Assembly (NCBI GenBank): GCA_035691205.1
Contig: DASSJM010000061.1
Location: forward strand, 15,932-79,931
Origin: Actinomycetota bacterium
GTDB taxonomy: Bacteria; Actinomycetota; UBA4738; HRBIN12
DNA length: 64,000 nt
Direction of reading: 5' to 3'
A program made the position numbers and the translations under genes. The notes under the pieces were generated by a model. The model had not been told where the DNA came from. It was given only the letters and a program-made list of their open reading frames with translations, and made no database searches. How positions within the stretch are numbered: the first letter of the stretch is position 1; each line of letters begins with the position of its first letter. Shown here piece after piece: positions 4,146-46,262 of this stretch.

Positions 4146-5388
4146 GGTCTCGGATCCATCCACGGGAGCCGCGTCCGATCCCTGGCCCGCGTGGCCCGAC
4201 GGGTTCGCGGAGGCGGACCAGGACCGGCGCGCGCTCCTCGTGCTCGTCTCGCTCCGAGGTATCACGCCGCGCCGGCTCCTCGAGCTGGCCGTTCGATCCG
4301 GTACGGCCTCGGCCGCGTTGGCTGCCATCGGCCGCGGGGAGGCCGGCAGCGAGAAGGACCGGGCCTTCGCCTCCGCGCTCGACCCCGATGCGATCGCCGC
4401 GGCGGTCCGAGCCCGCGGCGCGCGGTTCGTACCCTGGGGAGATCCGGGGTATCCCGAGCAGCTCCGGTCGATCCACGACCCGCCTGCGGGGGTGTTCGTC
4501 GCCGGACCATCGCCGCCCGATGTGACGCGGGCCGTCGCCGTGGTGGGCGCGAGGCGATGCACCGAGCTCGGGCGCGAGCAGGCTCGAGAGGTGGGTCGCG
4601 GTCTCGGATCGGCGGGCGTCACCGTCGTCAGCGGCGCGGCACGCGGGATCGACGCCGCTGCGCACGAGGGCGCGCTGTCGGTGGGCGCGGCGACGCTCGC
4701 GGTGCTCGGATGCGGGCTCGACGTCGACTACCCGCCGGGGAACCGCCATCTCCTCCGCCGGATCCGGGCGAGCGGCGGCGTCGTGAGCGAGTACGCGCCA
4801 GGGGTGCCGCCGGACCCCTGGAACTTCCCCGCCCGCAACCGGATCGTCGCCGGCCTGTGCTCCGCGACGGTGGTCATCGAGGGTGCCGACGGTAGCGGCT
4901 CGCTGATCACCGCGGAGCACGCGATGGAGTTCGGGCGCGACGTCTTCGCTGTCCCGGGACCCGTGAACAGCCCTCTCGCGGCCGTGCCGCTGCGCCTGAT
5001 CCGGGACGGCGCCACGATGATCCGGGGCGCGGCGGACCTCCTCGACGATCTGGGTCTCGAGCCGGTCGGCGAGCCGCTCGGGGGGTCCGCCGACCTGTCG
5101 GCCGCCGACCGGGAGGTGCTCGACCGGCTCGCGGGCCCCACGCTGCCGGACCGCATCGCGGCCGAGATGGGCTCGACCGTGCCCGAGGTCGTGCAGGTCC
5201 TGATGCGGCTGGAGCTGCGTGGCTTCGTGCGGAGCGTGGGCGGTCGGTACGAGTCGACGCTGAAGGCGCGGTCCGCTCAGGCTCCCCCGCGGAGCAGCCG
5301 AAGCGCCCGCGGCACGCCCGCCGTCGACACCACGCGGACCGGCACGCCCTCGCGCGCCAACATGCTCGCGACCATGGAGGAGCGGTAG
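4135..5388 (+). CDS. dprA: DNA-processing protein DprA
   Basis: Rossmann-like DprA core (GxARGIDAAAH, GTxxxFP) plus a C-terminal winged-helix region. I chose the internal ATG at 4135 (MPAEV) over the ORF-track start at 4063, because 4063 overlaps comM by about 80 nt. The ORF's 3' end overlaps a convergent gene. Confidence 0.8.
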   Translation: MPAEVSDPSTGAASDPWPAWPDGFAEADQDRRALLVLVSLRGITPRRLLELAVRSGTASAALAAIGRGEAGSEKDRAFASALDPDAIAAAVRARGARFVPWGDPGYPEQLRSIHDPPAGVFVAGPSPPDVTRAVAVVGARRCTELGREQAREVGRGLGSAGVTVVSGAARGIDAAAHEGALSVGAATLAVLGCGLDVDYPPGNRHLLRRIRASGGVVSEYAPGVPPDPWNFPARNRIVAGLCSATVVIEGADGSGSLITAEHAMEFGRDVFAVPGPVNSPLAAVPLRLIRDGATMIRGAADLLDDLGLEPVGEPLGGSADLSAADREVLDRLAGPTLPDRIAAEMGSTVPEVVQVLMRLELRGFVRSVGGRYESTLKARSAQAPPRSSRSARGTPAVDTTRTGTPSRANMLATMEER

Positions 5389-6644
5389 CCGCTCGCGCAG
5401 ACGATCGTAGAGCGCACGGAGCGCGAGAAGGCGTCGGCCGAGTCGGGGACGTCTCCGACGAAGACGTGCCGGGATCCCTCGAGGTGGCCGGCGTCCCACT
5501 CCGTCTTCTGGCGCACGTCGACGACGTCCCCGGCCTCCCCGCGCCCGATCTCCGCCACGAGCTGCTCGACACCGATCGCGGGGTACGAGGCGGTCTCCCG
5601 GCCCGACGCCGCCCAGGTCGCGACCCCGCCCTCGAGGTGGCCGAGCACCGGATCCCACCCGATCCGGTGCAGCTGGGTCGAGGCCTCCACGAGCCCCTCG
5701 TGCGACTCCACCAGGAGGACGATCGGAGTGGCGAACGGGAGCAGCCACCCGACGTACGCCGCGAACGAGGGTTCGAGCGGGACGTTCAGCGAGCCCGGCA
5801 CGTGGGCGCCCGCGAAGTGGGAGCCGTTCCGCGTGTCCACGAGCCAGGCGCCGCCGGCGAGCGCCGCCGCCGCGTCGTCCACCGTCATCGCCGCCGGGAT
5901 CGGGACGGCGCCGAACACGGGCGGCCCGGCGCGGTTGATCGGCGCCATGTGCGCGTAGTAGTCCGGGTACGCCACCAGGCCGGCCAGCTGCTGCCGCACG
6001 AACGCCTCCTCGTCCAGGTCGGCCAGGGCCGGGTTCAGGTGTCGTTCGTCGCCGAGCGTGGAGGTGCGTTCGCTGCTGGGCGGCGCGCTCGCGCAGAAGC
6101 TTCCGGCGCCGTGGGTCGGCAGGAGCAGGACCTGGTCCGGGAGCGCGGAGAGCCGACGCATGGTCCGGAACTGGAGACGCGTGAGCTCGTCGGCGCGCTC
6201 GGGGCCGAGCAGGTCCGTCCGTCCGGCGCTCCCGACGATCAGGCTTCCTCCCGAGAACAGTGCGACGCCCTCGCCATCGAAGTCCCGCAACAGGTAGGAC
6301 GTGTGCTCGGGCGTGTGACCGGGCGTGGCGAGCGCCTCGAGGCTCCCGTCGCCGATCGAGATCCGCGTCCCGTCCTCAACCGGCGTCGTCGGGAAGGCGT
6401 AGCCGCCGGTCGCCGGAGCCAGGATCTCGGCGCCGGTCGCCACCCGGAGCTCCCCCGCCCCGGAGACGTAGTCGTTGTGGACGTGCGTCTCGATGACGTA
6501 TCGGATCCGCGCGTCGCGGGACCGTGCCGTCTCGACGAACCGATCGACGTCTCGCTGTGGGTCGATGACGGCGGCCTCGTCCCCCCAGGACACCACGTAG
6601 CTGTTGTCGCCGAGCCCGGGCGTGACGAACAGGTCGAGCTCCAT
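5277..6644 (-). CDS. MBL-fold metallo-hydrolase fused to two rhodanese domains (persulfide dioxygenase / sulfurtransferase-like)
   Basis: N-terminal MBL motif HVHNDYVSG...TPGHTPEH, followed by two rhodanese modules, the second with an active-site Cys loop (CASGYRS). I chose the internal ATG (MELDLF) because upstream of it the ORF is Arg/Pro-rich and looks non-coding. Confidence 0.75.
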   Translation of the reverse strand: MELDLFVTPGLGDNSYVVSWGDEAAVIDPQRDVDRFVETARSRDARIRYVIETHVHNDYVSGAGELRVATGAEILAPATGGYAFPTTPVEDGTRISIGDGSLEALATPGHTPEHTSYLLRDFDGEGVALFSGGSLIVGSAGRTDLLGPERADELTRLQFRTMRRLSALPDQVLLLPTHGAGSFCASAPPSSERTSTLGDERHLNPALADLDEEAFVRQQLAGLVAYPDYYAHMAPINRAGPPVFGAVPIPAAMTVDDAAAALAGGAWLVDTRNGSHFAGAHVPGSLNVPLEPSFAAYVGWLLPFATPIVLLVESHEGLVEASTQLHRIGWDPVLGHLEGGVATWAASGRETASYPAIGVEQLVAEIGRGEAGDVVDVRQKTEWDAGHLEGSRHVFVGDVPDSADAFSRSVRSTIVCASGYRSSMVASMLAREGVPVRVVSTAGVPRALRLLRGGA

Positions 6645-6722
6645 CCGCGCATCGTACGCTCGCCCCTTGCTTGAATGGCACCCGTCGCGTTGGTACAAGG
6701 TCGGAACCGAACCGGGAGGATC

Positions 6723-7655
6723 ATGACCGCCCGCGAGCTTCCCCCGACCGACGCAGCCCTGATCGAGGGCTTCGTCGACCATCTCAGACTCGAGCGGCAT
6801 CTCGCCGCCGCCACGGTCGAGGCCTACCGCCGCGATCTCACGCAGCTCGGGACGTTCCTGTCTCGGACGCGCCGCGGCCTGCGGGGAGCCGACCTCGATG
6901 ACCTCCGTCGGTTCCTCGCGCAGCTCACGACCCTCGGTTACGCGCGCGCGTCGATCGCCCGGCGGGTCGGGGCCATCCACACCTTCTATCGGTGGGCCCT
7001 GTCCACCGGGGAGGTCGATCGAGACCCCGCCCTGTTGCTCGGCAGGCCGAAGGTGATCTCACGTCTGCCGACCGTCCTGCGGGTTCCCGAGGCCGCGGCG
7101 CTGGTCGAGGCCCCATCCGCGGCGTCGGGCGTCGCCGACCTCGATCGGGCCGTTGCGCTCCGTGACCGGGCGATCCTGGAGCTCATGTACGGATCGGGGC
7201 TGCGCGTCTCCGAGGTCGCCGGCCTCACGCCGGACCGCGTGGACATCCGGCGAGGACGGGTGCTCGTGCTCGGGAAGGGCTCGAAGGAACGCGATGTGCC
7301 GATGTCCGATCCAGCACGGTTCGCGCTCGCCGAGTGGATCGCGCTGGGGCGCCCGCTGATGCTGCCCGAGGGCGGGGCCGAGGCTCTCTTCCTCAACCGC
7401 CGATCCCGGCCGATCGGACCGCGCGACGTTCGACGCCTTGTGGGACGATACGGAGGCTCCACGCTTGCCGGCCGCCGGGTGACCCCGCACACGCTGCGCC
7501 ACTCGTTCGCCACGCACCTGCTCGAGGGAGGAGCCGACATCAGGGTCGTCCAGGAGCTGCTGGGCCACGCGAGCGTGGCGACCACCCAGCGGTACACGCA
7601 CGTCACCCGCTCACGCCTGTTCGAGGCGTACGAGCGGAGCCATCCGAGGGCCTGA
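6723..7655 (+). CDS. xerC: Tyrosine recombinase XerC
   Basis: Catalytic signature [39 protein letters not shown] with an N-terminal SAM-like domain. A GGAGGA ribosome-binding site precedes the internal ATG at 6723. Confidence 0.9.
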
Positions 7656-13439: not shown

Positions 13440-14192
13440 ATGCCGGAGGGCGACCAGACGCGCGAGGGCGAGGCACGGCCCCTGTACCACCGGGTCCTGC
13501 TGAAGCTCTCCGGCGATGCCTTCGCGCCCCCCGATACCGGGTACGGGATCTCGACGGATTCGACCGGGCTGCTCGCGCGAGAGCTCGCCGACGTGATCGA
13601 CCTCGGCGTGCAGTGTGCCGTCGTCGTGGGCGGGGGCAACATCTGGCGCGGCCGGCAGGCGCCGGGCATCGACCGAGCGCGGGCCGATTACATGGGGATG
13701 TTGGCCACCGTGATGAACGCGCTCGCCCTCCAGGACGCGCTCGAGAAGATCCACCTCCCGAGCCGCGTCCAGACCGCGATCCACATGGCGCAGGTCGCCG
13801 AGCCGTACATCCCGCTCCGCGCGATCCGCCACCTCGAGAAGGGGCGCGTCGTCGTGTTCGCGGCCGGGATGGGGGCGCCGTACTTCTCCACGGACACCAC
13901 CGCCGCCCAACGTGCGCTGGAGATCGGGGCGCAGGCCATCCTGAAGGGAACCAAGGTCGACGGCGTCTACACGGCCGACCCCCACGTCGATCCGACGGCG
14001 GAGCGCTTCGACTCGATCGAGTACCTGGACGTGCTGCGCGAGGGGTACCAGGTGATGGACGCGACGGCGATCAGCCTGTGCATGGAGAACCGGCTCCCCA
14101 TCATCGTCTTCGATTTCGCGCGCGAGGGGAACATCCGTCGGGCCGTGTCGGGCGAGCCGATCGGGACCCTGGTCCACGGAGGTGCCCGTTGA
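13440..14192 (+). CDS. pyrH: UMP kinase
   Basis: Motifs LLKLSGDAF...[10 protein letters not shown] and the usual position between tsf and frr. Confidence 0.9.
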
Positions 14193-14749
14193 CGGTGGAG
14201 ACCGCCCTCGCGGCGGCGGCGGAGAAGATGGACAAGGCGATCGGCGTCCTCAAGGACGAGCTGGGCGGGATCCGGACCGGCCGCGCCACGCCGGCGCTCC
14301 TTTCCCGGATCGTCGTCGACTACTACGGGACCCAGGTGCCGATCCAGCAGCTCGCATCGTTCTCGGTGCCCGAGCCGCGCACGCTGATGATCTCGCCGTT
14401 CGACAAGAACGCGATCGCCGCGATGGAGAAGGCGATCATGGCGAGCGACCTTGGCATCACGCCCGGGAACGACGGCGCCGTGATCCGGCTGTCGTTCCCC
14501 GCGCTCACCGAGGATCGCCGCAAGGAGCTCATCAAGGTCGTCCACCATCGGGGCGAAGAGGCACGCGTTGCGGTTCGGAACATCCGCCGGCACTCCAAGG
14601 ACGAGCTCGAGGGACTTGAGCGCGAGGGCGGCATCTCGGAAGATGACCTCGTGCGCTCCGAGAAGGAGCTCCAGAAGCTGACGGACAAGCACGTCGCCGA
14701 GATCGACGAGGTCGTGGCGCACAAGGACGCAGAGCTCAAGGAGATCTGA
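14189..14749 (+). CDS. frr: Ribosome recycling factor
   Basis: Frr signature (...[20 protein letters not shown]...). The start is a TTG at 14189 overlapping the pyrH stop; an in-frame GTG at 14195 is an alternative. Confidence 0.85.
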
Positions 14750-14751
14750 TC

Positions 14752-16272
14752 GTGCCCGACGACGAGGAGCGGAACGAGGGCGAGGAGCTCTTCGAGGACC
14801 TCGACAAGTTCTTCGCGCCGATCCAGGACGTCGACTGGCCCGAGGGCGCGCCGACCCGTCCCGCCGAACCGGCCCCCGCGCCACCGGCCGCCGCGCCGCC
14901 AGAGCGCGAACCCGAGCCCGAGCCGGCCCCCGAGCCCGTCGTCGAGCCGTTCGAGGAGGAGGTCTCCGAGGAGGCCCTGCCGGCTGCGCCCGCACCGTGG
15001 GAGGCCGAGGCGACGCGGGAAGAGGAGCAGGCGACCGACGCCGGCGTGGGGTCGTTCCTGTTCGAGGCGGAGGCCGAGGAGTACGAGGGGCTCGAGGGGG
15101 AGGCGGTGCGGATCGAGGCCGTCCCCGCCGGGCAGGCCGGTGGCGAGGACGAGGGCGTCGCCGAGCTCATCGAGGAGGCCGAGCCCGCGATCGAGGAGGC
15201 ACCCGACCTCGAGGCCGTGGAGGCCGCGGCCGAGCACTTCGCCGGCTCGATCCGCGAGGAGACCGGGCTCGAGGGGGAGGCGCCGGTCGCACCGGCGACG
15301 GAGGAGATCGCTATCGCGCAGCTGCTCGGGGAGGAGGGCGAGGGCGCGCCCGGCGAGCCCGAAGGGGCCAGGGCCGTCCGGGTCGGGGCCGAGGGTCTCG
15401 GCGGCCCGAGCTGGCAGGAGCCGACCGCGCTCGAGGTGGGCGCGGAGCAGGAGGGCCGAGGGCCGCGCGAGATGCCCACCCGCTTCCTCACGGGCATCGT
15501 CCTGGCGGGGCTCGCGATCGGCGCGATCTTGCTCGGGGAGGGCGCCTTCGCGATCTTCGCGGGCCTCGTCGTGCTGTTCGCGCAGGGGGAGCTCTACCTC
15601 GCGCTGCAGAAGCACCACTTCCAGCCGGCGACCGCCCTCGGGCTTGTGGCCGGCGCGCTGATCCTGGGGGCCGGGTACTACCGGGGCGAGGGCGCGATGC
15701 TGGCCGTGACCGCGCTCGCGACGTTCGCCACGTTCCTCTGGTACATGACGGTGCCGCCGCAGCACCGACGGAACATCGTGAGCAACGTGGCGCTGACGGT
15801 GCTGGGGATCGCGTACATCCCGCTCCTGGCCGCGTACGCGCTCGCCGTGCTGAAGCTGCCCGACGGCCAGGGGCTGGCGGTCGCCATCATCGGCCTCACC
15901 TTCGTCTACGACACCGCCGCCTTCGGGGTCGGGTACTTCTGGGGGAGCCGCCCGCTCGCCCCGAACGTGAGCCCGAAGAAGTCGTGGGAGGGCGCGATCG
16001 GCGCGACGCTCGTCACGATCGCGGTCGCGGTCGGCGTGGTCGCCCCCTCGGTCACGCTGCTCGACACGGTCGGACGCTCCGTGGGGCTGGCGCTCGTGGT
16101 CGCCATCTTCGCACCGCTCGGGGACCTGGCCGAGTCGCTGTTGAAGCGGGATCTGGGGATCAAGGACATGGGTGGCGTGCTGCCCGGTCACGGCGGGGTG
16201 CTGGATCGCATCGACTCGGTCCTGTTCGTCGCCCCGGCGGCCTTCCTCTACCTCCGGCTCATCCTGCTCTGA
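14752..16272 (+). CDS. cdsA: Phosphatidate cytidylyltransferase CdsA with a roughly 240-aa acidic low-complexity N-terminal extension
   Basis: The C-terminal 266 aa carry the CdsA signature (SWEGAIGA...GDLAESLLKRDLGIKDMGGVLPGHGGVLDRIDS). The N-terminal region is E/A/P-rich and in frame from a GTG at 14752. Confidence 0.8.
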   Translation: MPDDEERNEGEELFEDLDKFFAPIQDVDWPEGAPTRPAEPAPAPPAAAPPEREPEPEPAPEPVVEPFEEEVSEEALPAAPAPWEAEATREEEQATDAGVGSFLFEAEAEEYEGLEGEAVRIEAVPAGQAGGEDEGVAELIEEAEPAIEEAPDLEAVEAAAEHFAGSIREETGLEGEAPVAPATEEIAIAQLLGEEGEGAPGEPEGARAVRVGAEGLGGPSWQEPTALEVGAEQEGRGPREMPTRFLTGIVLAGLAIGAILLGEGAFAIFAGLVVLFAQGELYLALQKHHFQPATALGLVAGALILGAGYYRGEGAMLAVTALATFATFLWYMTVPPQHRRNIVSNVALTVLGIAYIPLLAAYALAVLKLPDGQGLAVAIIGLTFVYDTAAFGVGYFWGSRPLAPNVSPKKSWEGAIGATLVTIAVAVGVVAPSVTLLDTVGRSVGLALVVAIFAPLGDLAESLLKRDLGIKDMGGVLPGHGGVLDRIDSVLFVAPAAFLYLRLILL

Positions 16273-35928: not shown

Positions 35929-36780
35929 ATGGCGATCGGGCCCGACGGACTCCTGCTCGTGGACAAGCCCCCCGCGATGACCTCACACGACGTGGTCGAC
36001 GCCGAGCGTCGACACCTCGGCACCCGGAAGGTCGGCCACGCCGGGACCCTGGACCCGATGGCGACGGGGCTCCTCGTGCTCGGGATCGGTCGAGCGACGA
36101 GGCTGCTGCGCTACCTCGGCGACCTCCCGAAGACGTACGAGGGCACCGCGCGGCTCGGCGAGGAGACCGACACCCTCGATGCGGAGGGGGTCGTGCTTCG
36201 GACGGCACCCGTGGACGTCACCCACGCAGAGCTCGTGCGTGCGTGCGCGGCGCTGGTCGGGGAGACGATGCAGACCCCGCCGGCCTACTCGGCGGTGAAG
36301 GTCGGCGGGCGCAAGCTGGTCGACGCGGCCCGCAGGGGGGAGCGGCTCGAGGCTCCGGCCCGGCCGATCCGGGTCGATCGGTTCGAGGTCACGAGCTTCG
36401 CGACGCCCTCGTTCGGGTTCGAGGTGACCTGCTCGGGCGGCACCTACGTGCGGGTGCTGGTGGCCGACGTCGGTTCGACGCTCGGCTGCGGCGCGCACCT
36501 GAGCGCCTTGCGCCGGACCGCGATCGGTCCCTTCGACGTGGCCGACGCTCGAGCGCCCGGCCGGGGCGAGCCACTGCCGGTCGAGGCGGCGGTGCGACAC
36601 CTGCCGCGCGTGGACCTCGGCCAGGAGGAGGCCATGGCCGCCAGGCACGGGAGCATCCTCGGGCCCACCGGCATCCAGGGACCCCATGCGGTCTTCGCCC
36701 CCGACGGACGCCTGATCGGCGTCTACCGGGACGAGGGCGCCAAGGCTCGTCCCGAGGTGATCGTGCCGGAGAGCGTGTGA
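35929..36780 (+). CDS. truB: tRNA pseudouridine(55) synthase TruB
   Basis: Motifs LLVDKPPAMTSHDVV...GHAGTLDPMATGLLVLGIG and a PUA-like C-terminus. Confidence 0.9.
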   Translation: MAIGPDGLLLVDKPPAMTSHDVVDAERRHLGTRKVGHAGTLDPMATGLLVLGIGRATRLLRYLGDLPKTYEGTARLGEETDTLDAEGVVLRTAPVDVTHAELVRACAALVGETMQTPPAYSAVKVGGRKLVDAARRGERLEAPARPIRVDRFEVTSFATPSFGFEVTCSGGTYVRVLVADVGSTLGCGAHLSALRRTAIGPFDVADARAPGRGEPLPVEAAVRHLPRVDLGQEEAMAARHGSILGPTGIQGPHAVFAPDGRLIGVYRDEGAKARPEVIVPESV

Positions 36781-36815
36781 GCGCCCGCGTGCAGTCGCGG
36801 CGCACGTCTGCAAGC

Positions 36816-37931
36816 ATGTCCCATGACGTCCGACGAGCCAGGCACGGTATGACGCTCAAGCGCGTCGTCGGACTCGTCTTCTCCGTTGCGATCGTCGTCG
36901 GGATCTTCGCCTATGCGATCCCGCGCATCGCGGACTACTCAGCCGTCTGGGCGACGATCCAGAACCTCACGCCGATCGAGTTCGTATCGCTTCTCGCCGC
37001 GACGGTGCTGAACCTGTTCACGTACTGGCTCGCGAACATGGCGGCGCTGCCGGGGCTCCGTCTCGGGCCCGCCGCCGTCGTCACCCAGACGACCACGTCG
37101 GTGGCCAACACCCTGCCGGCGGGCGGGGCGATCGCGGTCGGACTCACGTTCTCCATCCTGCGGTCGTGGGGCTTCACGGCGCAGTCGATCACCCTGTACA
37201 TCGGGGTCACCGGCGTGTGGAACGTGTTCGTGAAGCTCGCCCTGCCGGTGGTCTCGTTGGCCTTGCTGGCTCTCACCGGGCAGGTGAGCCCGGCCCTGGT
37301 GGTGGCCTCGATCGTCGGGCTGGCGGTGTTGATCGTCGCGGTCGTCCTGTTCTCGCTCGCGCTGTCGAGCAAGGAGTTCGCGCGTCGGATCGGCGAGGGC
37401 CTCGGGCGGCTCGTGTCGTGGTTCCGCAAGCGCTTCCGCAAGGCGGCGGTCACGGGTTGGGGGGAGCACGCGGTCGCGTTCCGCAGACGGACGATCGTCC
37501 TGGTCGCCGGGCGCTGGATCAGGATCACCCTCACGACCATCGCGTCCCAGCTCGCGTTGTGGCTCGTCCTGCTGCTGTGCCTTCGCCACGTCGGGATCTC
37601 AGAGCAGGAGGTCTCCACCCTGCAGACCCTGGCCGTGTTCGCGTTCGGCCGGCTGCTCGGGGCGATCCCGATCACGCCGGGTGGCCTCGGCGTGATCGAG
37701 CTCGGGTACATCGGCGGACTGGTGGCGGCCGGCGGGAACGAGGCCCAGGTGGTGGCGGCGGTCCTGCTGTTCCGCGCGCTGACCTACGGGATCCAGATCC
37801 CGATCGGCGCGTTCACGTACCTGATCTGGCGCGCGAAGCGGAGCTGGAGGCTGGAGATCCACCCCGACATCGCCGGGGAGGCCCAGCTCGAGCCCGAGGC
37901 CGAGGTCGGAACCGACTTCCTCCCCGCGTAG
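36816..37931 (+). CDS. Flippase-like membrane protein (lysylphosphatidylglycerol synthase TM-region / UPF0104 family)
   Basis: About 370 aa with about eight TM helices. The C-terminal GRLLGAIPITPGGLGVIELGYIGGL motif is characteristic of the MprF-like translocase domain. The start is the ATG at 36816 or at 36849. Confidence 0.6.
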   Translation: MSHDVRRARHGMTLKRVVGLVFSVAIVVGIFAYAIPRIADYSAVWATIQNLTPIEFVSLLAATVLNLFTYWLANMAALPGLRLGPAAVVTQTTTSVANTLPAGGAIAVGLTFSILRSWGFTAQSITLYIGVTGVWNVFVKLALPVVSLALLALTGQVSPALVVASIVGLAVLIVAVVLFSLALSSKEFARRIGEGLGRLVSWFRKRFRKAAVTGWGEHAVAFRRRTIVLVAGRWIRITLTTIASQLALWLVLLLCLRHVGISEQEVSTLQTLAVFAFGRLLGAIPITPGGLGVIELGYIGGLVAAGGNEAQVVAAVLLFRALTYGIQIPIGAFTYLIWRAKRSWRLEIHPDIAGEAQLEPEAEVGTDFLPA

Positions 37932-37932
37932 C

Positions 37933-38610
37933 TCATCCGTCGCGCACGCTCTCGCGCCGCCGCAGGGCGACGTCGTGGATCTCGGTCACCAGGGCGGCGC
38001 AGCCCAGGGCGATGCCGGTCCCGAGCAGGACGCCCGCGAGGACGTCGGAGAACCAGTGCGCGAGAAGGTAGACGCGCGAGCTCGCCATGACGAACGCGAA
38101 CGCGGCGGCCGCGAACTCCCATCGTCGACGTTTGGGCCCAGGCGCCAGCAGGACCAGGACGAACGCCACGGCGATCGAGGCACCGGCCACCGCGTGACCC
38201 GACGGGAAGGAGAACCCGACGGTCTCGACGAGCGAACCGGGCGGGCGCCCACGGTGGAAGAAGTCCTTGGCCACCAGCACGGTGATCTCGGCGACCGCCC
38301 AGGTCAGGAGCCAGGTGGCGAGCGCTCGCCAGCGCGTCCTGGACAGGAGCCACAGCGCCACGACGATGCGGAACGGGATCGTGACCACGCCGCTCCCGAT
38401 GAGGTTGAGCAGGCGAGCCACGGCCGTGAGCGGCTCGTTCCGGATGTCGACCATCGCGTGGGAGATCGCGAGGTCCCATTCGCCCAGGAACGGCAGGGTG
38501 GTCTCCGGTGCCGCGGCGGGTGGGTGGCGACCCACCGCGACGAAGACGAAGACCGTCGCTGCGAGGAGCGCGATCGCCCACCAGAAGGCCCGGCGGTGGT
38601 CGGTGAGCAC
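37933..38610 (-). CDS. PAP2 family lipid-phosphate phosphatase (membrane)
   Basis: All three PAP2 motifs are intact: KDFFHRGRPP, FPSGHA, SRVYLLAHWFSD. Confidence 0.8.
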   Translation of the reverse strand: MLTDHRRAFWWAIALLAATVFVFVAVGRHPPAAAPETTLPFLGEWDLAISHAMVDIRNEPLTAVARLLNLIGSGVVTIPFRIVVALWLLSRTRWRALATWLLTWAVAEITVLVAKDFFHRGRPPGSLVETVGFSFPSGHAVAGASIAVAFVLVLLAPGPKRRRWEFAAAAFAFVMASSRVYLLAHWFSDVLAGVLLGTGIALGCAALVTEIHDVALRRRESVRDG

Positions 38611-38613
38611 TTC

Positions 38614-39198
38614 TCAGTCCTCGCCCACGCACGGCGGGGCTTCGGCGCCGCAGAGCGTGAGTCCCCATCCCTCCTCGACGAGGTCCACCACCTCCGCCCT
38701 CGGCAGGAACGTCAGGGCGTCGTCGGCCTCGAACGCGAGCGTCGCGGCCTGCGCGACGTCGAGGAATCGGTATCGGTAGGTTACGCAGCCGCCGACGAAC
38801 ACGAAGTGCCGATCGGCGGCGTACGGGGTGACGCTGATCGATTCGCGGTACACCCGCACGTCGAGCTCGCCCGAGGCCCTCGTCACCTCCTCGAGGCCGG
38901 CGACGTCGCAGCTCGGCGCGAGCACGACCTCGACCGAGTGGATCCCGGCCCGGTCCGAGTCCAACCAGAACCGCGCGGTGCCGTTGCGCATCTCGGAGCC
39001 GCCGTATCCCCATCCCGGCGGGAACAGGCGGATACACGGGAGGAGCGTCGCCGAGGGGACGGATTGCGCCATCAAGATGAAGGGCGCCGCGTCGTCCGGC
39101 TGACACAGCACCTCCTCCGAACGCGCCGAGCCCGCCGCGCACCCTGAGAGCGTGACGGCGACCGCGATCAGGGCGAGGACCCTGGCCGATGGGCTCAC
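38614..39198 (-). CDS. Cys-rich lipoprotein of unknown function
   Basis: The GTG start overlaps the upstream stop (GTGA). A lipobox (AVAVTLSGC) is present. Six further Cys suggest disulfides, and third-position GC bias is strong. Confidence 0.55.
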   Translation of the reverse strand: MSPSARVLALIAVAVTLSGCAAGSARSEEVLCQPDDAAPFILMAQSVPSATLLPCIRLFPPGWGYGGSEMRNGTARFWLDSDRAGIHSVEVVLAPSCDVAGLEEVTRASGELDVRVYRESISVTPYAADRHFVFVGGCVTYRYRFLDVAQAATLAFEADDALTFLPRAEVVDLVEEGWGLTLCGAEAPPCVGED

Positions 39199-40880
39199 GC
39201 GAACACCGCCCAGTTGTTCACGACCAGCAGGAGCGCCAGCATGAGGACCAGCACGACCCCGAGCGTCAGGGTCACCCGGCGGATGCTCCAGCGCTGGATC
39301 GCTACCGGCGCACGGTCGGGGGCGAGCCGGCGGAAGCGTGCCAGCAGGTCCCGGCCGTCGCGCTTGAGGTGCGCCCGCAGCTGGGTGGGGCTCGCGACCC
39401 CGCGGGTCGCGGCGAACGCCTCGGCGAGTTCGTCCTCGGTGAAGAAACTCGTGGCCCGCTGGTAGACGCGGTCGGCGTCGGTGCGGAGCGCGAGGACCAG
39501 CATCATGTTGGCCAGGTCGACGGCCTGGCGCCACGGCGACGGACGGACCTGGACGAAGAAGACGTCGATCAGCTTGAGCTGGCCGTCCTGCACCATGAGG
39601 TTCGCCGGCTTGATATCTCGGTGGGCGAGCCCCTCGTCCCAGAGGCGTCGGACCAGCATGAGGCCCTGCTCGATGATCGAGTCGTCGACGTCCGCCTCGC
39701 TGATCTCGACGGCGCCGTCGAAGAACTCCATCACGATCATGTACTCGCGCTCGGGGGTGATCTCCACGACCCCGTACGGTGTGGGGGAGGGGAGCCCGAG
39801 GTCCTGTAGGAGCCGAAGGGTGTAGTCCTCGTACTCCACGAACCGCCGGACCGACGTGAACCGGCTCTCGTCCTCCAGGGCCCCGTACAGGATCGTCCGA
39901 CCGAGCTTGTACCAGCGGTCGGCGCGGACGTGGCTCTTCGCGTAGAGCTTGGCGAACAGGTACCGCTCGGGCTGGCCGCCGCCGGCGGCGATGCGCAGCC
40001 GCAAGGGGGTGGAGCCACCCGAGGCCTCCAGCCCGACCGGCTTCAGGTCGAGCACCTCCATGTCGAGCTGGTCGCGCACCCCCGCGACGATCGCCTCGCC
40101 CCGACGACCCCCGACGTCCAGGTGCGCGGCCTTGCCCCTCCCATAGGTCACGGGGAAGACGTCGTTCGGCGTGAACAGGCGGAAGGCGACCAGACCGATC
40201 GCGACCCCGAAGATCGCCCCGAACACGGCGTCCGTTGGGAACTCGACGGCCAGGTAGATGCGCGCGAGCCCGACCAGCCCGAGGACGATCCCGATCGCCC
40301 ACTTGGTCCGGTAGCGGGGCCGCCCCGGCACGACCAGGCAGTAGGCCATGCCGATCAGCGTCACCGCGAGCCCGGCCATCGGCCGTGATGGCATCGAGAA
40401 GTCCTCCCAGGAGGCGAGGATCCTGACATCGAGGGGTCGCGGGCGGCCCATGACGACCGACAGGTCGTAGGCCAGCACACCGGTGACGATCAGTGCGCCG
40501 AGGAACACGAACAGATGCCGCCACCTCCGAAAGGCGATCAGGGCGCCGATGGTCCCCCATCGCAGGATCCGGATCGTCCAGCTCAGCGCCAGCACGTTCA
40601 CGAGCTTCATCGCATCGGTGAGCCACGGGGTCCGCAGCTCGGCGATCCACCGGAGCACGGCGGACTCCAAGCGCTGGAACACGTCCGCCACCGTGGGGAG
40701 CAGCAGGGCGCCGGCGAACACGAGCAGGAAGTAGCCGGCCATGATCAGCCAGAAGCGTCCGGACCGCCCCAGGTCTCTCGGGAGCGGCGGCGGCTCGCCG
40801 GAGGGCCGACGACGCCGGGTCCGGCCACCGGGCAGGTGCCGCTCGTCGGCGACGACTCGAGGATCCCGGGCGGCGTCCAT
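39195..40880 (-). CDS. Membrane protein fusing a degenerate PAP2-like domain to an ePK/Kdo-type protein kinase-like domain
   Basis: The N-terminal 6-TM region has PAP2-like motifs with the catalytic residues substituted (GRPRP; PSRP instead of PSGH; ARIYLAVEFPTD, with His replaced by Glu). The C-terminus has a kinase fold (FAKLY lysine, catalytic loop HRDIKPANLMV, LIDVFF in place of DFG) and a terminal TM helix. Confidence 0.7.
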   Translation of the reverse strand: MDAARDPRVVADERHLPGGRTRRRRPSGEPPPLPRDLGRSGRFWLIMAGYFLLVFAGALLLPTVADVFQRLESAVLRWIAELRTPWLTDAMKLVNVLALSWTIRILRWGTIGALIAFRRWRHLFVFLGALIVTGVLAYDLSVVMGRPRPLDVRILASWEDFSMPSRPMAGLAVTLIGMAYCLVVPGRPRYRTKWAIGIVLGLVGLARIYLAVEFPTDAVFGAIFGVAIGLVAFRLFTPNDVFPVTYGRGKAAHLDVGGRRGEAIVAGVRDQLDMEVLDLKPVGLEASGGSTPLRLRIAAGGGQPERYLFAKLYAKSHVRADRWYKLGRTILYGALEDESRFTSVRRFVEYEDYTLRLLQDLGLPSPTPYGVVEITPEREYMIVMEFFDGAVEISEADVDDSIIEQGLMLVRRLWDEGLAHRDIKPANLMVQDGQLKLIDVFFVQVRPSPWRQAVDLANMMLVLALRTDADRVYQRATSFFTEDELAEAFAATRGVASPTQLRAHLKRDGRDLLARFRRLAPDRAPVAIQRWSIRRVTLTLGVVLVLMLALLLVVNNWAVFA

Positions 40881-40978
40881 GGGTCCCGGCGACTCTACCC
40901 TGCCACGCGGGCCGTACGGATGCCGCCCGGCGGGCCGCGTGTGAAGATGTCCGCATCGCAGGCAGGCTGGGGGAGCAC

Positions 40979-41833
40979 GTGACGGTGGACGACGCGAAGA
41001 AGGCGAAGGCCCACAAGCATCGCGACGTCGAGGATCGCAACAGTCGCCTGCCCAAGAAGGCCTACGAGAAGGAGCTGCGGCGCCTCCAGGAGGAGCTCGT
41101 CAAGCTCGAGGACTGGGTCGCGGCCGTCGGTGCCCGCATCGTGGTGGTGTTCGAGGGTCGGGACGCCGCGGGCAAGGGCGGCACGATCAAGCGGATCACG
41201 CAGTACATGAACCCCCGGATCACCCGGATCGCCGCCCTGCCCAAGCCGACGGAGCGAGAGCGCACGCAGTGGTACTTCCAGCGCTACATCGACCAGCTAC
41301 CCGCGGCCGGCGAGATCGTCCTGTTCGACCGTAGCTGGTACAACCGGGCCGGCATCGAGAAGGTGCTCGGGTTCTGCACCCCCGATGAGCACCGTCGGTT
41401 CCTTCGCCAGTGCCCGATCGTGGAGCGACTGATCGTGGAGGACGGGATCACCCTCCTGAAGTACTGGTTCTCCGTCTCGGACGAGGAGCAGGAGCGCCGC
41501 TTCCGGGCTCGGATCGACGATCCGATCCGGCGGTGGAAGCTCTCCGACACCGACCTGTACTCGCGCTCGCGCTGGGTCGACTACTCCAGGGCGAAGGACG
41601 AGATGTTCGTCCACACGGATATCCCCGAGGCCCCCTGGTACCTCGTCGAGGCCGACGACAAGCCGAGCGCGCGGCTGAACTGCATCGCCCACCTCCTGTC
41701 CCAGATCCCGTACGAGCCGGTGCGGCACGATCGGCTCGCCGTTCCGGAACGGCAGTCGGACGAGGGGTACGTCCGCCCGCCCCGCGAGGCGTTCACGTAC
41801 GTGCCGGACCACGCGGCCACGCTGCTCGCCTGA
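40979..41833 (+). CDS. Polyphosphate kinase 2 (PPK2) family protein
   Basis: Walker A (FEGRDAAGKGGTIKR) and the PPK2 lid motifs (LFDRSWYNRAGIE...KYWFSVS...RRW). Confidence 0.85.
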   Translation: MTVDDAKKAKAHKHRDVEDRNSRLPKKAYEKELRRLQEELVKLEDWVAAVGARIVVVFEGRDAAGKGGTIKRITQYMNPRITRIAALPKPTERERTQWYFQRYIDQLPAAGEIVLFDRSWYNRAGIEKVLGFCTPDEHRRFLRQCPIVERLIVEDGITLLKYWFSVSDEEQERRFRARIDDPIRRWKLSDTDLYSRSRWVDYSRAKDEMFVHTDIPEAPWYLVEADDKPSARLNCIAHLLSQIPYEPVRHDRLAVPERQSDEGYVRPPREAFTYVPDHAATLLA

Positions 41834-41864
41834 GCCATCACACCGTTCGATACGCTGCCGGGCC

Positions 41865-42794
41865 ATGGAGCGTCTCCGCGGTCTGGACGCGCTGCCGCTC
41901 GCCGGTGGCCGCAGCGTCGTCACGGTCGGCTTCTTCGACGGGGTGCACATCGGGCATCGGGCCGTCCTGGCGCGCACGGTCGAGCGAGCCCGGGAGCGGG
42001 ACGCTCCCGCCATCGCCGTCACGTTCGACCGTCACCCGCGAGAGGTGCTCACGCCGGGGAGCGAGCCCCGGCTGCTCACGTCGGTGGAACGCAAGGCCGC
42101 GTTGATCGAGGGTGCGGGGATCGACGTGCTGCTCGTGGTCGAGTTCACCGAGGAGTTCAGCCGGTGGCCGGCCGATCGGTTCGTCGCCGACGTGCTCGCG
42201 GACGGGCTGCACGCCGAACACTGTGTGATGGGCGCGAACTTCACCTTCGGCCACAAGGCCGCCGGCAACGTCGATCGCCTCGTCGAGGTCGGTCCGGCAC
42301 ACGGCTTCACGGCCGAGCGGGTCGAGCTCGTCGATCTGGGCGGCCGCCGCGTCTCCTCGTCCTCGATCCGGGAGGCGCTCGCCGAGGGGGACCTCGGGTG
42401 GCCCGAGGCCGCGCTCGGCCGGCGGTACGTGCTGGACGGCACGGTCGTGCGTGGGGCCGGTCGCGGCCACGACCTCGGGTTCCCGACCGCGAACCTACGG
42501 ACCTGGCCCCGCCTGCTCCTTCCGGGGCGAGGGATCTACGCGGGGCGCGCGGAGGTCGACGGCGGGGCCCACGTGGCCGCGATCAGCGTCGGCACCAACC
42601 CGACGTTCGGCACCGAGCCGCTCCACGTCGAGTCCTACCTGCTGGACTTCGACGGGGACCTGGTCGGTCGAGAGATGGCCGTCGAGTTCTGGTCGTACCT
42701 GCGCGATGAGGTACGCTTCGACACCGCCGCCGCCCTCGTCGACGCGATGACGGAGGACGTTCGCCGGACCCGCGAGCTCGTCCGGAGCGACTGA
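41865..42794 (+). CDS. ribF: Bifunctional riboflavin kinase / FMN adenylyltransferase
   Basis: Motifs GFFDGVHIGH and GRGHDLGFPTANL... Confidence 0.9.
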   Translation: MERLRGLDALPLAGGRSVVTVGFFDGVHIGHRAVLARTVERARERDAPAIAVTFDRHPREVLTPGSEPRLLTSVERKAALIEGAGIDVLLVVEFTEEFSRWPADRFVADVLADGLHAEHCVMGANFTFGHKAAGNVDRLVEVGPAHGFTAERVELVDLGGRRVSSSSIREALAEGDLGWPEAALGRRYVLDGTVVRGAGRGHDLGFPTANLRTWPRLLLPGRGIYAGRAEVDGGAHVAAISVGTNPTFGTEPLHVESYLLDFDGDLVGREMAVEFWSYLRDEVRFDTAAALVDAMTEDVRRTRELVRSD

Positions 42795-42798
42795 AGTC

Positions 42799-43899
42799 AT
42801 GGCCCCACGCCACGCCCGCCGCACCCGCTTCCCCTTCGCCCTGGTCGTCGCGATCCTTGCCGTGGCCGCGGCGGCGGCCTGGTTCCTCGGGGGTCGCGAG
42901 GGTACCGACGCCGAGGCGGGAGCGGTCCCGGGAGCCGGCGGGGGCTCGGCGACGGGTACCGCGACGGGGAGCACGGCCGACCTCGCCGGTGACTCGCCCG
43001 ACGCTGCGCTCACCCCCGCGCCCGAGGCGACCCCGGCCTCCGAGCCGAGAGGGAAGCTCGTGATCCACGGGACCGGCGACGTGAGCCTGGACCCCTCGTA
43101 CATCCCGGCGCTCGCAACCAACGGGTACGGCTGGGCCTGGAGCGGCCTCGATGGTCTCTTCCGGGACGACGATCTCACGATCGTCAATCACGAATGCCCC
43201 TCGACGGACATCGTCGCGCCGATCTCGAAGACCTTCGTGTTCCGGTGCGACCCGCGGGCGCTGGATGAGGCGCTCGCGGCCGGCGTCGAGGTGGCGAACC
43301 TCGCGAACAACCACGGATACGATCAGGGTCCGGACGGCCTGTTGGATTCGATCCGGAACATGCGGCGGGCGGGCGTGCTTCCGGTGGGCGCGGGGGAGGA
43401 CGCGACCACGGCCGACGCCCCCCGGTACGTCGAGGTCAAGGGGTGGCGGATCGCGATCGTCGGCGTCGGAGAGGTCCTGGACCCGCTGACGCAGGTCGCG
43501 ACCGAGGACCGGCCGGGGACGGCGGTCGGCCACGAGTTCGGCCGGGCGCTCCGAGCGATCCGCGAGGCTGAGGCCGAGGCCGACCTGGTGCTCGTGACGA
43601 TCCATTGGGGGATCGAGCTCGACACCCAGCCCCGCGATTACCAGGTCCAGGAGGCCCGCGCGATGATCGACGCCGGGGCCGACGCGATCTTCGGTCACCA
43701 CTCGCACCGGCTGCAGCCGATGGACACGTACCAGGGCCGGCCGATCTTCTACGGCCTCGGGAACTTCGTGTGGCCCAGGTTCTCGGTCGAGGGCTCGACG
43801 ACGGCGGTCGCCCGCGTGGTGGTGCGTCCCGACGGCACGATCACGGGCACGCTCCTGCCCGCCGAGATCGTCTCGGACGGCCACCCGGTCCTTCGGTAG
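42799..43899 (+). CDS. CapA family metallophosphoesterase-like protein (poly-gamma-glutamate synthesis CapA/PgsA-like), membrane anchored
   Basis: An N-terminal TM anchor, then the calcineurin-like motifs (HGTGD...NHEC...NLANNHGYD...GHHSH). Confidence 0.75.
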   Translation: MAPRHARRTRFPFALVVAILAVAAAAAWFLGGREGTDAEAGAVPGAGGGSATGTATGSTADLAGDSPDAALTPAPEATPASEPRGKLVIHGTGDVSLDPSYIPALATNGYGWAWSGLDGLFRDDDLTIVNHECPSTDIVAPISKTFVFRCDPRALDEALAAGVEVANLANNHGYDQGPDGLLDSIRNMRRAGVLPVGAGEDATTADAPRYVEVKGWRIAIVGVGEVLDPLTQVATEDRPGTAVGHEFGRALRAIREAEAEADLVLVTIHWGIELDTQPRDYQVQEARAMIDAGADAIFGHHSHRLQPMDTYQGRPIFYGLGNFVWPRFSVEGSTTAVARVVVRPDGTITGTLLPAEIVSDGHPVLR

Positions 43900-43979: not shown

Positions 43980-46262
43980 GTGAGCACATCGCTCGGTCCG
44001 GGCGGCCGATTCGGCGACTACACGATCGCCTCGATGCTCGGCCGCGGGGGGATGAGCGTGGTCTACCTGGCCGAGGACCGTCGGCTCGGCCGCCAGGTGG
44101 CGATCAAGGTCCTCGCCGAGGAGCTCGCCGAGGACGAGTCCTTCCGCACCCGGTTCATCCGGGAGTCCCAGCTCGCGGCCGGCCTGGAGCATCCCAACAT
44201 CGTCCCCGTGTACGAGGCGGGCGAGCTCGAGGGACACCTGTTCATCGCGATGCGGTACGTCCGCGGTACCGACCTGCGCACGCTGATCTCCCGCGAGGGT
44301 CCTCTCGCCCCCGATCGTGCCTTGGCCCTGCTCCGGCCGATCGCCGCGGCGTTGGATGCCGCGCATCGCCGCGGATTGGTCCATCGAGACGTGAAGCCCG
44401 CCAACATCCTCGTGGCGATCGACGAGGGGGAGGAGCACCCCTACCTGTCGGACTTCGGGCTCACGAAGCACGTCTCGTCCAAGAGCGGCCTCACCAAGAC
44501 CGGGCAGTTCATGGGGACGGTCGACTACGTCGCGCCCGAACAGATCCGCGGGGAAGAGGTCGATGGCCGTACCGACGAGTACTCGCTCGCGTGCGTCCTC
44601 TACCAGTGCCTGACCGGCGAGGTGCCGTTCGACAAGCAGGCGGACGTCGCCACGATGTTCGGGCACCTGCAGGATCCGCCTCCGAGGGTCTCGGCGCGGC
44701 GACCCCTGGTCCCGTCCGGTCTCGACGACGTCGTGATCCGGGGCATGTCGAAGGAGCGCGAGGACCGGTTCCCGACGTGCACGGCCATGATGGAGGCGCT
44801 CAACACCGCGGTCGGGCTCCCGTCCCTGCCTCGCGAGCAGCCCTCGATCGACCCGTCGATCGTGGCGATGCCGCCCCAGCCCGGTACCGGACCGCTGCTC
44901 CCGGCCGCCCCCGCGACGCCGTCCGGGCCGTCCGCGACGCCTCCGTCGGGCACGAGCACCGTTCGGGTGCCGGCCGCCGCGCCCTCGCCCCCTCGGGGCA
45001 CGAGCCGGCGCGCCCTCCTGATCGGCGGCCTCGCCGCGGTCGCCGTCGTCGTCGTCGTCGTCCTGGTCGTGCTGTCGTCCGGCGGCGAGGAGCCCGTGCC
45101 CGGTCCGGGACCGACGGGTGAGACCGCCCCGGGCTCCGCCTTCGCGAACGAGCGGCCGATGGACATCCCCGGCGCCGGGATCACGGCCCCGTACCCCTCG
45201 TCGATCGAGGTCGCCGACCTCTCCGGCACGATCGACGACGTGAACGTGACGATCCACGGGTTCGCTCACGCGTTCCCCCGCGACGTGGACCTCGTCCTGG
45301 AGGGACCCGGCGGCCAGACGGTCTTCCTCATGGAGGGGATCGGTGGACCCGAGGGGGTGAGCGGGCTGACGATCACGTTCGACGACGCCGCACCTTCCCT
45401 GCCCTCCTCGAGGGCGCTGTCGAGCGGGAGCTTCCGGCCGACGACCGCCGTGGGCGACGGGTTCGGGTTCAACGGGCCGCCGCCCGCTCCCGAGCCGCCC
45501 TACGGACTGGACCTGTCCGTGTTCAACGGCACCGATCCGAACGGTACGTGGAACCTGTTCCTGTTCGACGACTCGCAGGGGTCCGGCGGCCAGATCGCCG
45601 GCGGCTGGAGCCTGGACATCGAGCTCGCCGGCCCGACGACGACCGGCGCGACGGGATCCACCGGCGCCACCGGCCCCTCGGGCGAGGTCATCTTCACCGA
45701 CGACTTCTCTGACCCCGCGTCCGGGTGGGACGTGTTCGACGAACCCAGGCAGCACGGCGGCTACCAGGACGGCGAGTACGTGCTCGGCGTGGTGGGCGGG
45801 CTCCGCGTGGTGGGGGACTTCAACACCTCGACCCAGGAGTTCGCCACGCTGGGGGACGTGCGGGTGGAGGCGACCGGCCGGATGCTCACGCCGGAGAGGG
45901 ATTCGGTGTACGGGGTGGTCTGTCGGGCCGCGACCGCCGACGACTACTACTACTTCCTGATCGGGGGCAACGGGAAGTACTTCATCGGGGAGAACGATGC
46001 GACCGGGGCGACGAACTTCGACGTCGGGGTCTCGCCCGCGGTGGTCCGTGGTCGCGGGCCGAACCGGATCGTCGCGGAGTGCATCGACGGACCCGAAGGG
46101 GTGATCCTGCGGATGATCGTCAACGGCATCTCGGTCAACACGGTGGTGGACGCGGTCGAGCCGATCGCCTCGGGCGCGACCGGGTTCCGTGTGGACTCGG
46201 GGGGCTCCGACGCGGAGGCGGCGTTCGACGACTACGTGCTGAGCGCGCCTTCGAGCCCCTGA
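43980..46262 (+). CDS. Transmembrane Ser/Thr protein kinase with extracellular proprotein-convertase P-domain and a ConA-like beta-sandwich domain
   Basis: Hanks kinase domain (GRGGMSVVY...AIKVL; [10 protein letters not shown]; DFG; APE), a TM segment ([20 protein letters not shown]), then a P-domain-like region ([26 protein letters not shown]...) and a C-terminal jelly-roll-like domain. Confidence 0.85.

Follow-up and report, generated by a model that had tools for sequence, protein, structure and literature searches.

Which of the genes that lie between truB and ribF in an uncultured actinobacterium belong together, and what might they do? The question is raised by a 64,000-nucleotide stretch of DNA, here termed the window, from Actinomycetota bacterium (UBA4738; HRBIN12), assembly GCA_035691205.1, contig DASSJM010000061.1, positions 15,932 to 79,931 of the forward strand. 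The exact window proteins are found in a metagenome-assembled genome (MAG) annotated by NCBI as 'Actinomycetota bacterium', on a contig of 136 kb. The G+C content is ~70%, and the gene order is infB, DUF503, rbfA, a DHH/DHHA1 gene, truB, the five genes studied here and ribF. An earlier note on this DNA had proposed that the five form an envelope lipid-phosphate remodelling module, and all five open reading frames (ORFs) are present where it placed them. Comparison of ~180 related loci shows that four are a real module: a fusion of a catalytically dead PAP2 domain with a kinase domain (the pseudoPAP2-kinase), a Cys-rich lipoprotein, an active PAP2 phosphatase and a flippase-like membrane protein. 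These four are linked by gene order and by gene fusions; the fifth, PPK2, is not. The fusion protein may be a receptor kinase for a phosphorylated lipid of the envelope.

Three of the genes are on the minus strand. The fusion gene (39195..40880, 561 aa) is the first gene of the operon in the window, followed by the lipoprotein gene (38614..39198, 194 aa) and the active PAP2 gene (37933..38610, 225 aa), which is the last. A GTGA start/stop overlap of the kinase and lipoprotein genes can be read at 39198-39195, and a 3-nt gap separates the lipoprotein and PAP2 genes at 38613-38611. The order and the overlaps are conserved across the species-level loci described below, which upholds the view that the three genes are one coupled unit. 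The flippase-like gene (36816..37931, plus strand, 371 aa) is on the same strand as truB and starts 35 nt after it. It was said to lie immediately upstream of the operon as an MprF-like member; the membership stands, but the position is at the 3′ end of the operon, in convergent orientation. The stop codons of the flippase-like and PAP2 genes (37931/37933) are separated by 1 nt. Separate terminators do not fit there, so the transcripts of both strands probably overlap.

Gene order was compared in 80 species-level loci (L001 to L080), which are the best 80 of 214 relatives in a scan with one genome per species. All are from uncultured MAGs with Actinomycetota or Actinomycetes labels, except one Solirubrobacterales and one Armatimonadota. 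The lipoprotein gene follows the kinase gene in 74 of the 77 loci with enough sequence, and is missing only from L008, L011 and L029. At least 66 loci offer a start codon with a 4-nt overlap of the kinase stop codon. Where the sequence extends far enough, PAP2 comes directly after the lipoprotein gene (62 of 64 loci), and the flippase-like gene is next, and convergent, in 44 of 54 loci of the lineage; a few further loci have partial matches only. The Armatimonadota-labelled locus, L040, has the same local order of kinase, lipoprotein, PAP2 and flippase-like genes. Its fusion protein and P0035, which carries a Gemmatimonadota label, are homologues of ~68% identity, and both probably represent mis-binned contigs rather than transfer.

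Most of the 80 loci belong to one lineage and occupy the same truB-ribF slot, as would be found if unrelated neighbours were merely held together by the infB-truB-ribF synteny of that lineage. For this reason distant relatives and paralogues were compared too. The genes are found together outside the slot, and in other orders, in L067, L081, L083, L084, L088, L089 and L090. L067 has a second full copy in another genomic context, with the order OpuAC (a binding lipoprotein discussed below), kinase, lipoprotein and PAP2. In L089, an Ilumatobacter sp. MAG (43% identity), the genes for PAP2_3, kinase, lipoprotein, flippase-like protein and PAP2 are co-directional with overlapping junctions. PAP2, kinase, lipoprotein and flippase-like genes are present in L090 and L091 (53%), and kinase, lipoprotein and flippase-like genes in L088 (44%). 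The kinase and lipoprotein genes of L084 are followed on the opposite strand by the flippase-like gene and PAP2, and L083 displays a flippase-like gene, OpuAC and kinase with 4-nt overlaps. A co-directional flippase-like gene with 4-nt overlaps is found in the distant lineages L089, L090, L083 and L081. The flippase-like and PAP2 proteins of the distant loci are orthologues of those of the window (E 1e-42 to 1e-106); flippase-like orthologues at E 1e-81 to 1e-106 adjoin the kinase in L084, L088, L089 and L090. This rearranged co-occurrence, together with the single-protein fusions described below, refutes the idea of chance neighbours for the four core genes and leaves it next to no probability. 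The earlier note had wished to see gene order compared across genomes; for the kinase, lipoprotein, PAP2 and flippase-like genes it is conserved within the lineage, and outside the slot the genes co-occur in other orders.

The PPK2 gene (40979..41833, plus strand, 284 aa) had been called divergent, and this is correct for its orientation but not for its sequence, which is that of a canonical class I enzyme (PF03976, 342 bits; TIGR03707, 369.4 bits against a cut-off of 301.8; Walker A motif GRDAAGKGG). Its start is separated by 98 nt from the kinase gene, which is on the opposite strand, and the arrangement is kept in the closest relatives, such as L092 (80% identity, the closest relative looked up), where PPK2 is present and OpuAC is absent. 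A five-gene system, in which PPK2 supplies or consumes polyphosphate-derived nucleotides for the kinase and shares a divergent promoter with it, would account for this proximity; already disfavoured, it is very improbable in view of the wider counts. Of the 80 species-level loci only 20 have PPK2 within 10 kb of the kinase, where it either adjoins ribF or is inserted between truB and the flippase-like gene; among long metagenome loci it is found in 2 of 29, and the distant contexts L081 to L091 lack it altogether. In most loci that have PPK2 the OpuAC gene sits between it and the kinase. PPK2 is also 5′ of ribF on the same strand, by 31 nt in the window and by 30-31 nt when L092 is included. 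PPK2 is judged to be a bystander that pairs with ribF, and not a component of the system as had been proposed.

A shared promoter had been assigned to the 98-nt spacer (40881..40978) that separates the divergently oriented genes for the kinase and PPK2. This was not borne out: no sigma-70-like promoter appeared in a scan of 36700-42000, a kind of scan that is uninformative on operon structure in an actinobacterium of 70% G+C. The only terminator-like site in the same scan is inside the lipoprotein gene and does not exceed the chance expectation. The spacer does display an imperfect inverted repeat (40866-40888 / 40908-40930), with 23-nt arms that are 78% complementary and 19 nt apart and that cover the kinase start codon and the spacer toward PPK2. 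It could be an operator, a leader hairpin or a chance occurrence. Other than this repeat, a repeat search gave short weak matches only, and no Rfam families were found in a scan of the whole window.

A more constant neighbour, missed by the earlier note, is a gene for an OpuAC-family (PF04069) binding lipoprotein. It lies directly 5′ of the kinase gene on the same strand in 74 of 80 loci (e.g., L004 9019-9942 and L012 8993-9925, both plus strand). The gene is an orphan with no transporter genes adjoining. It is absent throughout the window and has been lost from the window and its closest relatives L092, L002, L005 and L007. The OpuAC binding protein gene is the usual first gene of the operon and, in place of PPK2, the usual fifth member, which corrects the earlier picture. 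By these comparisons the obligate pair is the pseudoPAP2-kinase and the lipoprotein domain, with PAP2, the flippase-like protein and OpuAC as frequent partners. A choline kinase/transport role, considered on account of OpuAC, was rejected because no permease or ATPase gene adjoins it, the catalytic loop is that of a protein kinase and OpuAC is absent from the window. In L088 a 683-aa protein with OpuAC, peptidoglycan-binding and polysaccharide deacetylase parts (4885-6936, minus strand) is encoded beside the kinase-lipoprotein-flippase cluster.

What, then, is the protein at the centre of the module? The fusion protein displays both PAP2 and kinase-type matches. Its N-terminal six-helix membrane domain (approximately residues 43-237; 40170..40754, minus strand) has a PAP2 match of 30.5 bits over residues 124-237 and a PAP2 fold, but a dead active site. 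Compared with Bacillus subtilis PgpB, the three catalytic motifs (C1 to C3) are changed from KX6RP to SX6RP, from PSGH to PSRP and from SRX5HX3D to ARX5EX3D, with Ser at the C1 Lys, Pro at the C2 His and Glu at the nucleophilic C3 His. In an alignment of 80 diverse family members, down to ~35-40% identity, the C1 Lys and the C2 and C3 His are missing from 80 of 80, and the nucleophilic C3 His is mostly replaced by Asp. As the catalytic Lys and both His are lost, the fused domain cannot act as a PAP2-type phosphatase, and its description as inactive, made for the window protein, extends to the whole family. It shares this lack of Lys and both His with none of B. subtilis PgpB/YodM, Escherichia coli PgpB, LpxE and BcrC-type PAP2 enzymes. 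The C1 Arg-Pro, C2 Pro-Ser and C3 Arg are kept across the alignment, which indicates a pocket that is repurposed and not decaying. The retained pocket Arg residues, two in number, are the phosphate-binding ones.

The family is large and appears to be confined to uncultured soil and sediment Actinomycetota. Homologues at 67-80% identity number more than 8000, and clustering at 50% identity gives 2940 groups. A conserved N-terminal motif, predicted to be cytoplasmic, RRRP[S/T]GEPPPLP (residues 22-34; 40779..40817, minus strand), precedes the membrane domain. Among the 66-67 of 80 members that cover its columns, R24 is found in 65, R25 in 66, P26 in 67 and G28 in 67; position 27 is Ser in 50 and Thr in 11, i.e., Ser/Thr in 61 of 66. 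The RRRP[S/T]G part is possibly a candidate phospho-acceptor or docking site.

The protein-kinase-like domain (approximately residues 262-520; 39321..40097, minus strand) has a RIO/Bud32/APH-like fold, and Pkinase, RIO1 and APH-type matches are present at residues 340-440. The catalytic loop of the window protein reads HRDIKPAN, which is of the eukaryotic protein kinase (ePK) type. K311 in beta-3, D422 of HRD, N427 of the catalytic loop and the metal-binding D439 are each found in 76-78 of 80 members, and the beta-3 Lys, the residues of the HRDxKPxN loop and the metal-binding Asp taken together are each kept in 76-79. The domain is probably catalytically competent. The Pfam PF00069 match covers residues 383-439 only and is below the cut-off (28.1 vs 31.7 bits), and no APE-type activation segment is found after D439; the domain does not qualify as Hanks-type. 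The RIO1 match is narrowly above its cut-off (23.3 vs 22 bits), but the HRDIKPAN loop, the position of the domain between the six-helix domain and a seventh helix, and a score of 17.8 against 480 for the NCBIfam Rio1 equivalog set it apart from RIO kinases. With the Kdo/WaaP family (PF06293) the window protein gives no match at E ≤ 0.01, and relatives reach 19.5-21.0 bits against a cut-off of 21.3. None of the curated NCBIfam equivalogs of the RIO, Bud32, Kdo(WaaP) and APH families is reached by the fusion protein, and the ePK-type loop also differs from those enzymes.

The arrangement of these domains across the membrane was modelled in a relative. The relative is P0241, a natural kinase::lipoprotein fusion. 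Its AlphaFold2 model (predicted local distance difference test (pLDDT) 88, predicted template modelling score 0.79) displays six helices, the kinase, a seventh helix at 534-553 and a lipoprotein-like domain at 576-714; the region of the RRRP[S/T]G motif has low pLDDT. In the window protein the seventh transmembrane helix corresponds to the hydrophobic C-terminus (approximately residues 533-556; 39213..39284, minus strand). From the Arg-rich N-terminus and Arg-rich inner loops, the kinase is predicted to be in the cytoplasm, and both the lipoprotein and the dead pocket on the outer side. An outward-facing pocket is the usual orientation of PAP2 proteins.

The lipoprotein contains 7 Cys in 194 aa, the lipobox Cys20 and six others. 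It has a signal peptide, and its lipobox (LSGC) reads MSPSARVLALIAVAVTLSG-C, as expected of a bacterial lipoprotein; Cys20 is invariant across 39 homologues. No match was found to Pfam, NCBIfam or PDB sequences. In fold comparison it has a possible resemblance to the lipid-binding lipoprotein LpqN (LpqN/PsbP-Mog1-like) at 8-12% identity, and a weaker one to the PknH sensor domain. It differs from LpqN/Mtc28/PsbP-Mog1-like lipoproteins, apart from this low identity, in having its own conserved Cys pattern and in being tied to a kinase. In the window it would be a separately encoded extracytoplasmic partner of the kinase.

In other members of the family the two are one protein. Kinase::lipoprotein fusions of 700-735 aa, with the lipoprotein domain after the seventh helix, make up many of the 50%-identity clusters. 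They are not frameshift artefacts, as in a sister lineage from soil, recovered by a metagenome scan, the fusion is one uninterrupted ORF in 63 of 72 independent loci. In P0282, a single ORF of 924 aa, an active PAP2 is joined to a dead one, with kinase, helix and lipoprotein domain after them. Its gene overlaps an upstream flippase-like gene by 4 nt and has a second PAP2 gene downstream.

The tandem active and dead PAP2 domains of P0282, and the adjacency of an active PAP2 gene to the fusion gene in most loci, might suggest that the active PAP2 is partnered and gated by the dead PAP2 domain, with the RIO/Bud32-like domain as an ATP-driven conformational switch. Such a scaffold is improbable. 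In 76 of 80 members HRDxK retains its Lys, a residue typical of phosphotransfer to hydroxyl groups of proteins, the same protein carries a conserved basophilic Ser/Thr motif, and many loci consist of the kinase and lipoprotein without a PAP2 gene.

The active PAP2 protein, with 62.8 bits to PF01569 (gathering score 27.2), has all three catalytic motifs, as had been claimed: KDFFHRGRP (KX6RP), PSGH and SRVYLLAHWFSD (SRX5HX3D). Among solved structures it is nearest to B. subtilis PgpB (E 2e-11) and LpxE. Scores of 17-34 bits with the NCBIfam equivalogs, whose cut-offs are 229-261, do not allow it to be assigned to PgpB, undecaprenyl-diphosphatase or LpxE. A second PAP2 subfamily (YPSGH / GRxYxGAHxPxD) is found in L067 (7748-8380), L081 (3436-4035) and L089 (8277-9014), all on the plus strand. 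In some loci this type takes the place of the window-type PAP2 or is found alongside it, and L089 has a PAP2_3-type gene 5′ of the kinase as well.

The flippase-like protein has the N-terminal membrane domain of MprF (PF03706, LPG_synthase_TM, 71.5 bits vs 33.4); TIGR00374 is below its cut-off (40.1 vs 43.2), and PDB sequences gave no meaningful match. The aminoacyl-phosphatidylglycerol synthase domain of MprF is absent, as the 371-aa protein ends after the membrane domain and the NF033480 MprF equivalog scores 49.7 against 600. Fusions involve this gene too. In at least 25 of the loci L094 to L173, termed here the fused lineage, a protein of 805-859 aa consists of a membrane region, a kinase-like domain and a PF03706 domain (113.8 bits), e.g., L112 2577-4994 and L103 8654-11233, both plus strand. 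The kinase-like domain is paralogous to the window kinase (26% identity, E 7e-15) and is probably a pseudokinase, as HRS is found instead of HRD. A second pseudoPAP2-kinase paralogue is present beside the flippase-like gene in ~14 species-level loci. That of L016 (566 aa; 14082-15782, plus strand) occupies the interval between truB and the flippase-like gene and is divergent from the latter; similar ones are found in L017, L020, L024, L030, L035, L041, L043, L044, L046, L056, L064, L069 and L070.

Further fusions and neighbours are with parts of signalling proteins. An N-terminal extension with REC and LuxR-HTH domains is present in proteins of 754-764 aa on five contigs (P0255/P0256; L085 to L087, 6001-8265), and one with a STAND NTPase and TPR in proteins of ~1370-1400 aa on three contigs (P0243/P0245/P0246/P0254; L084, 6001-10146). 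Each of these relatives has a lipoprotein homologue downstream, and the RRRP[S/T]G motif is retained at the junctions of both the REC-LuxR and the PAP2 fusions. Judging from their domain content, both types would be membrane-tethered regulators. Kinase paralogues that are divergent from a HisKA_3 histidine kinase are found outside the truB-ribF slot in L008 (1495-3543), L011 (3163-5244), L029 (7007-9085) and L093 (3727-5775), all on the minus strand. The neighbouring histidine kinase is a multi-pass protein of ~682-693 aa; the HisKA_3 family pairs with LuxR/NarL-type regulators. L093 retains the lipoprotein and lacks PAP2 and the flippase-like gene. An anti-phage defence role, prompted by the STAND fusions, was dropped after PADLOC assigned no defence system: the kinase loop gave weak, generic matches to PD-T4-6 of at most 28.5 bits, and the other four proteins gave none.

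A different possibility is that the genes form a metabolic cycle. The kinase would phosphorylate a lipid or lipid-linked sugar of the inner leaflet, the flippase would move the lipid and PAP2 would dephosphorylate it outside; candidate substrates would be polyprenol, diacylglycerol or a glycolipid head group, and the dead PAP2 domain would hold the substrate or act as an anchor. APH, MTR kinase, choline kinase LicA and WaaP are as near in fold as RIO/Bud32, there are weak Kdo/WaaP and APH Pfam matches, and the NCBI annotation of one relative reads 'lipopolysaccharide kinase InaA family'. The tight linkage of the kinase to a phosphatase and a flippase-like protein is also in keeping with a cycle, as is the finding that HexF, an MprF-type flippase, works in a glycolipid pathway of Clostridioides difficile (PMC10128005). 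However, the loop is the protein-kinase HRDxKPxN and not HGDxxxxN, the dead pocket is on the opposite side of the membrane from the kinase, and the kinase-lipoprotein pair persists without PAP2 and the flippase-like gene (L085, L093). The REC-LuxR and STAND-TPR fusions and the HisKA_3 neighbours are typical of signalling proteins. The cycle, with the substrates and the anchoring role that go with it, is the main rival reading and is considered rather unlikely.

There is about an even chance, in our estimate, that the fusion protein serves as a transmembrane receptor kinase for a phosphorylated lipid of the envelope, acting with or on the PAP2 and flippase-like proteins. This receptor-kinase reading is the one that best fits the dead but conserved pocket outside, the lipoprotein or binding protein beside it, the live kinase inside and the recurrent fusion to, or proximity of, components of transcription factors and two-component systems. 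The linkage, the fusions, the state of each active site and the folds and topology of the models are shown here; which ligand is bound, which way the signal runs and what is phosphorylated are what we infer. The dead PAP2 pocket and the lipoprotein would bind a phosphorylated envelope lipid without hydrolysis, candidates being polyprenyl (pyro)phosphate, phosphatidylglycerol phosphate, phosphatidic acid or related species. The coupled lipoprotein, with its possible LpqN/PsbP-like fold, would complete the outer sensing surface after the seventh helix. Occupancy of the pocket would be relayed to the kinase domain, which may phosphorylate itself, with RRRP[S/T]G as the candidate site, or partner proteins. 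The active PAP2 and the MprF-type flippase-like protein might make or remove the ligand, or be the regulated outputs.

It is possible, and proposed more tentatively, that the proteins act as a homeostat. The dead PAP2 domain would read outer-leaflet lipid phosphate (e.g., polyprenyl pyrophosphate) with the LpqN-like protein as co-receptor, and the kinase would control the flippase and PAP2. Control of the flippase by the kinase is suggested by the fusion of the flippase to a likely pseudokinase in relatives.

Several points weigh against a receptor kinase. By fold search a protein kinase cannot be told from a small-molecule kinase, as APH-type enzymes score as high as RIO kinases, and the Pfam scores are marginal, Pkinase being below its cut-off and RIO1 just above. 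RIO and Bud32 are largely ATPases. Some homologues, such as L082, are orphans without partners nearby. The fused lineage is often without PAP2, which is downstream in 35 of 60 loci, and 23 of its 29 long loci contain a flippase-like domain, whether stand-alone or fused. The family comes entirely from uncultured organisms, and the evidence is comparative and predictive.

The earlier note knew of no description of this system, and full-text literature searches likewise found none of a PAP2-kinase fusion, of a module of PAP2 and an MprF-type protein, or of this gene set. A pseudophosphatase-FHA protein of oral Actinobacteria that came up in these searches is unrelated to the module. Bacterial Ser/Thr-type receptor kinases are known, and the signal sensed by most of them is not known. 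The nearest system is a Segetibacter gene cluster in which a PAP2 phosphatase is encoded with a PIK-like kinase and a secreted protein whose function is unknown; its authors propose a role in phospholipid homeostasis (bioRxiv 10.64898/2026.09.18.752743). It differs from the module described here in that the kinase is soluble and of another family, there is no pseudoPAP2 fusion, the phylum is another one and the cluster is present in a few genomes only.

The MviN/MurJ protein of Mycobacterium tuberculosis (Rv3910) is a lipid II flippase with an intracellular pseudokinase, a helix and an extracellular domain, and is controlled by PknB/FhaA (PMC12599244). The two actinobacterial envelope proteins are alike in having a polytopic lipid-handling domain, a cytoplasmic kinase-like domain, a single helix and an extracytoplasmic domain; the fusion of flippase-like and HRS kinase-like domains in relatives is a still closer parallel. 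The roles, however, are reversed, as the window protein has a dead membrane domain and a live kinase. MviN has the MurJ fold, whereas PAP2 and MprF-type folds are found here, and there is no sequence relation to the ActPs3 pseudokinases.

GlnH-GlnX-PknG is an actinobacterial precedent for a relay from a lipoprotein to a kinase. The present system is unlike the GlnH-GlnX-PknG and PknH-type ones: its binding protein is OpuAC rather than an amino-acid binder and is absent from the window, membrane transducer and kinase form a single protein, and the kinase falls outside the canonical Hanks type of PknG or PknH. In concept the animal PLPPR/PRG proteins are the same: they have a catalytically dead PAP2 fold that serves lipid-phosphate signalling. 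They are eukaryotic, not fused to a kinase, and share ancestry with the bacterial domain at the superfamily level only. The flippase-like protein shares the LPG_synthase_TM domain with MprF and HexF and differs from MprF in the missing synthase domain. HexF of C. difficile is an MprF-type flippase that is able to work without a fused synthase (PMC10128005).

Two genes further along the window, 3′ of ribF, encode a PGA_cap (CapA-like) protein (42799-43899, plus strand) and a 760-aa Hanks-type Ser/Thr kinase (43980-46262, plus strand). The latter has a long extracytoplasmic C-terminal region without a Pfam match.

How cells gauge the state of their membrane lipids, including the recycling of carrier lipids, is an open question that this family addresses. 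It offers a readable case, in which a lipid-phosphate fold without catalysis is wired to a live kinase, with a live phosphatase and a flippase-like protein alongside. If the proposed mechanism is true, pseudo-phosphatase receptors would be added to the bacterial signalling repertoire, and there would be a route to the cargo of stand-alone MprF-type flippases. Should the proteins act as the homeostat tentatively proposed above, these uncultured Actinomycetota would have a self-contained envelope-lipid homeostat and a new class of pseudoenzyme-based bacterial receptor kinase.

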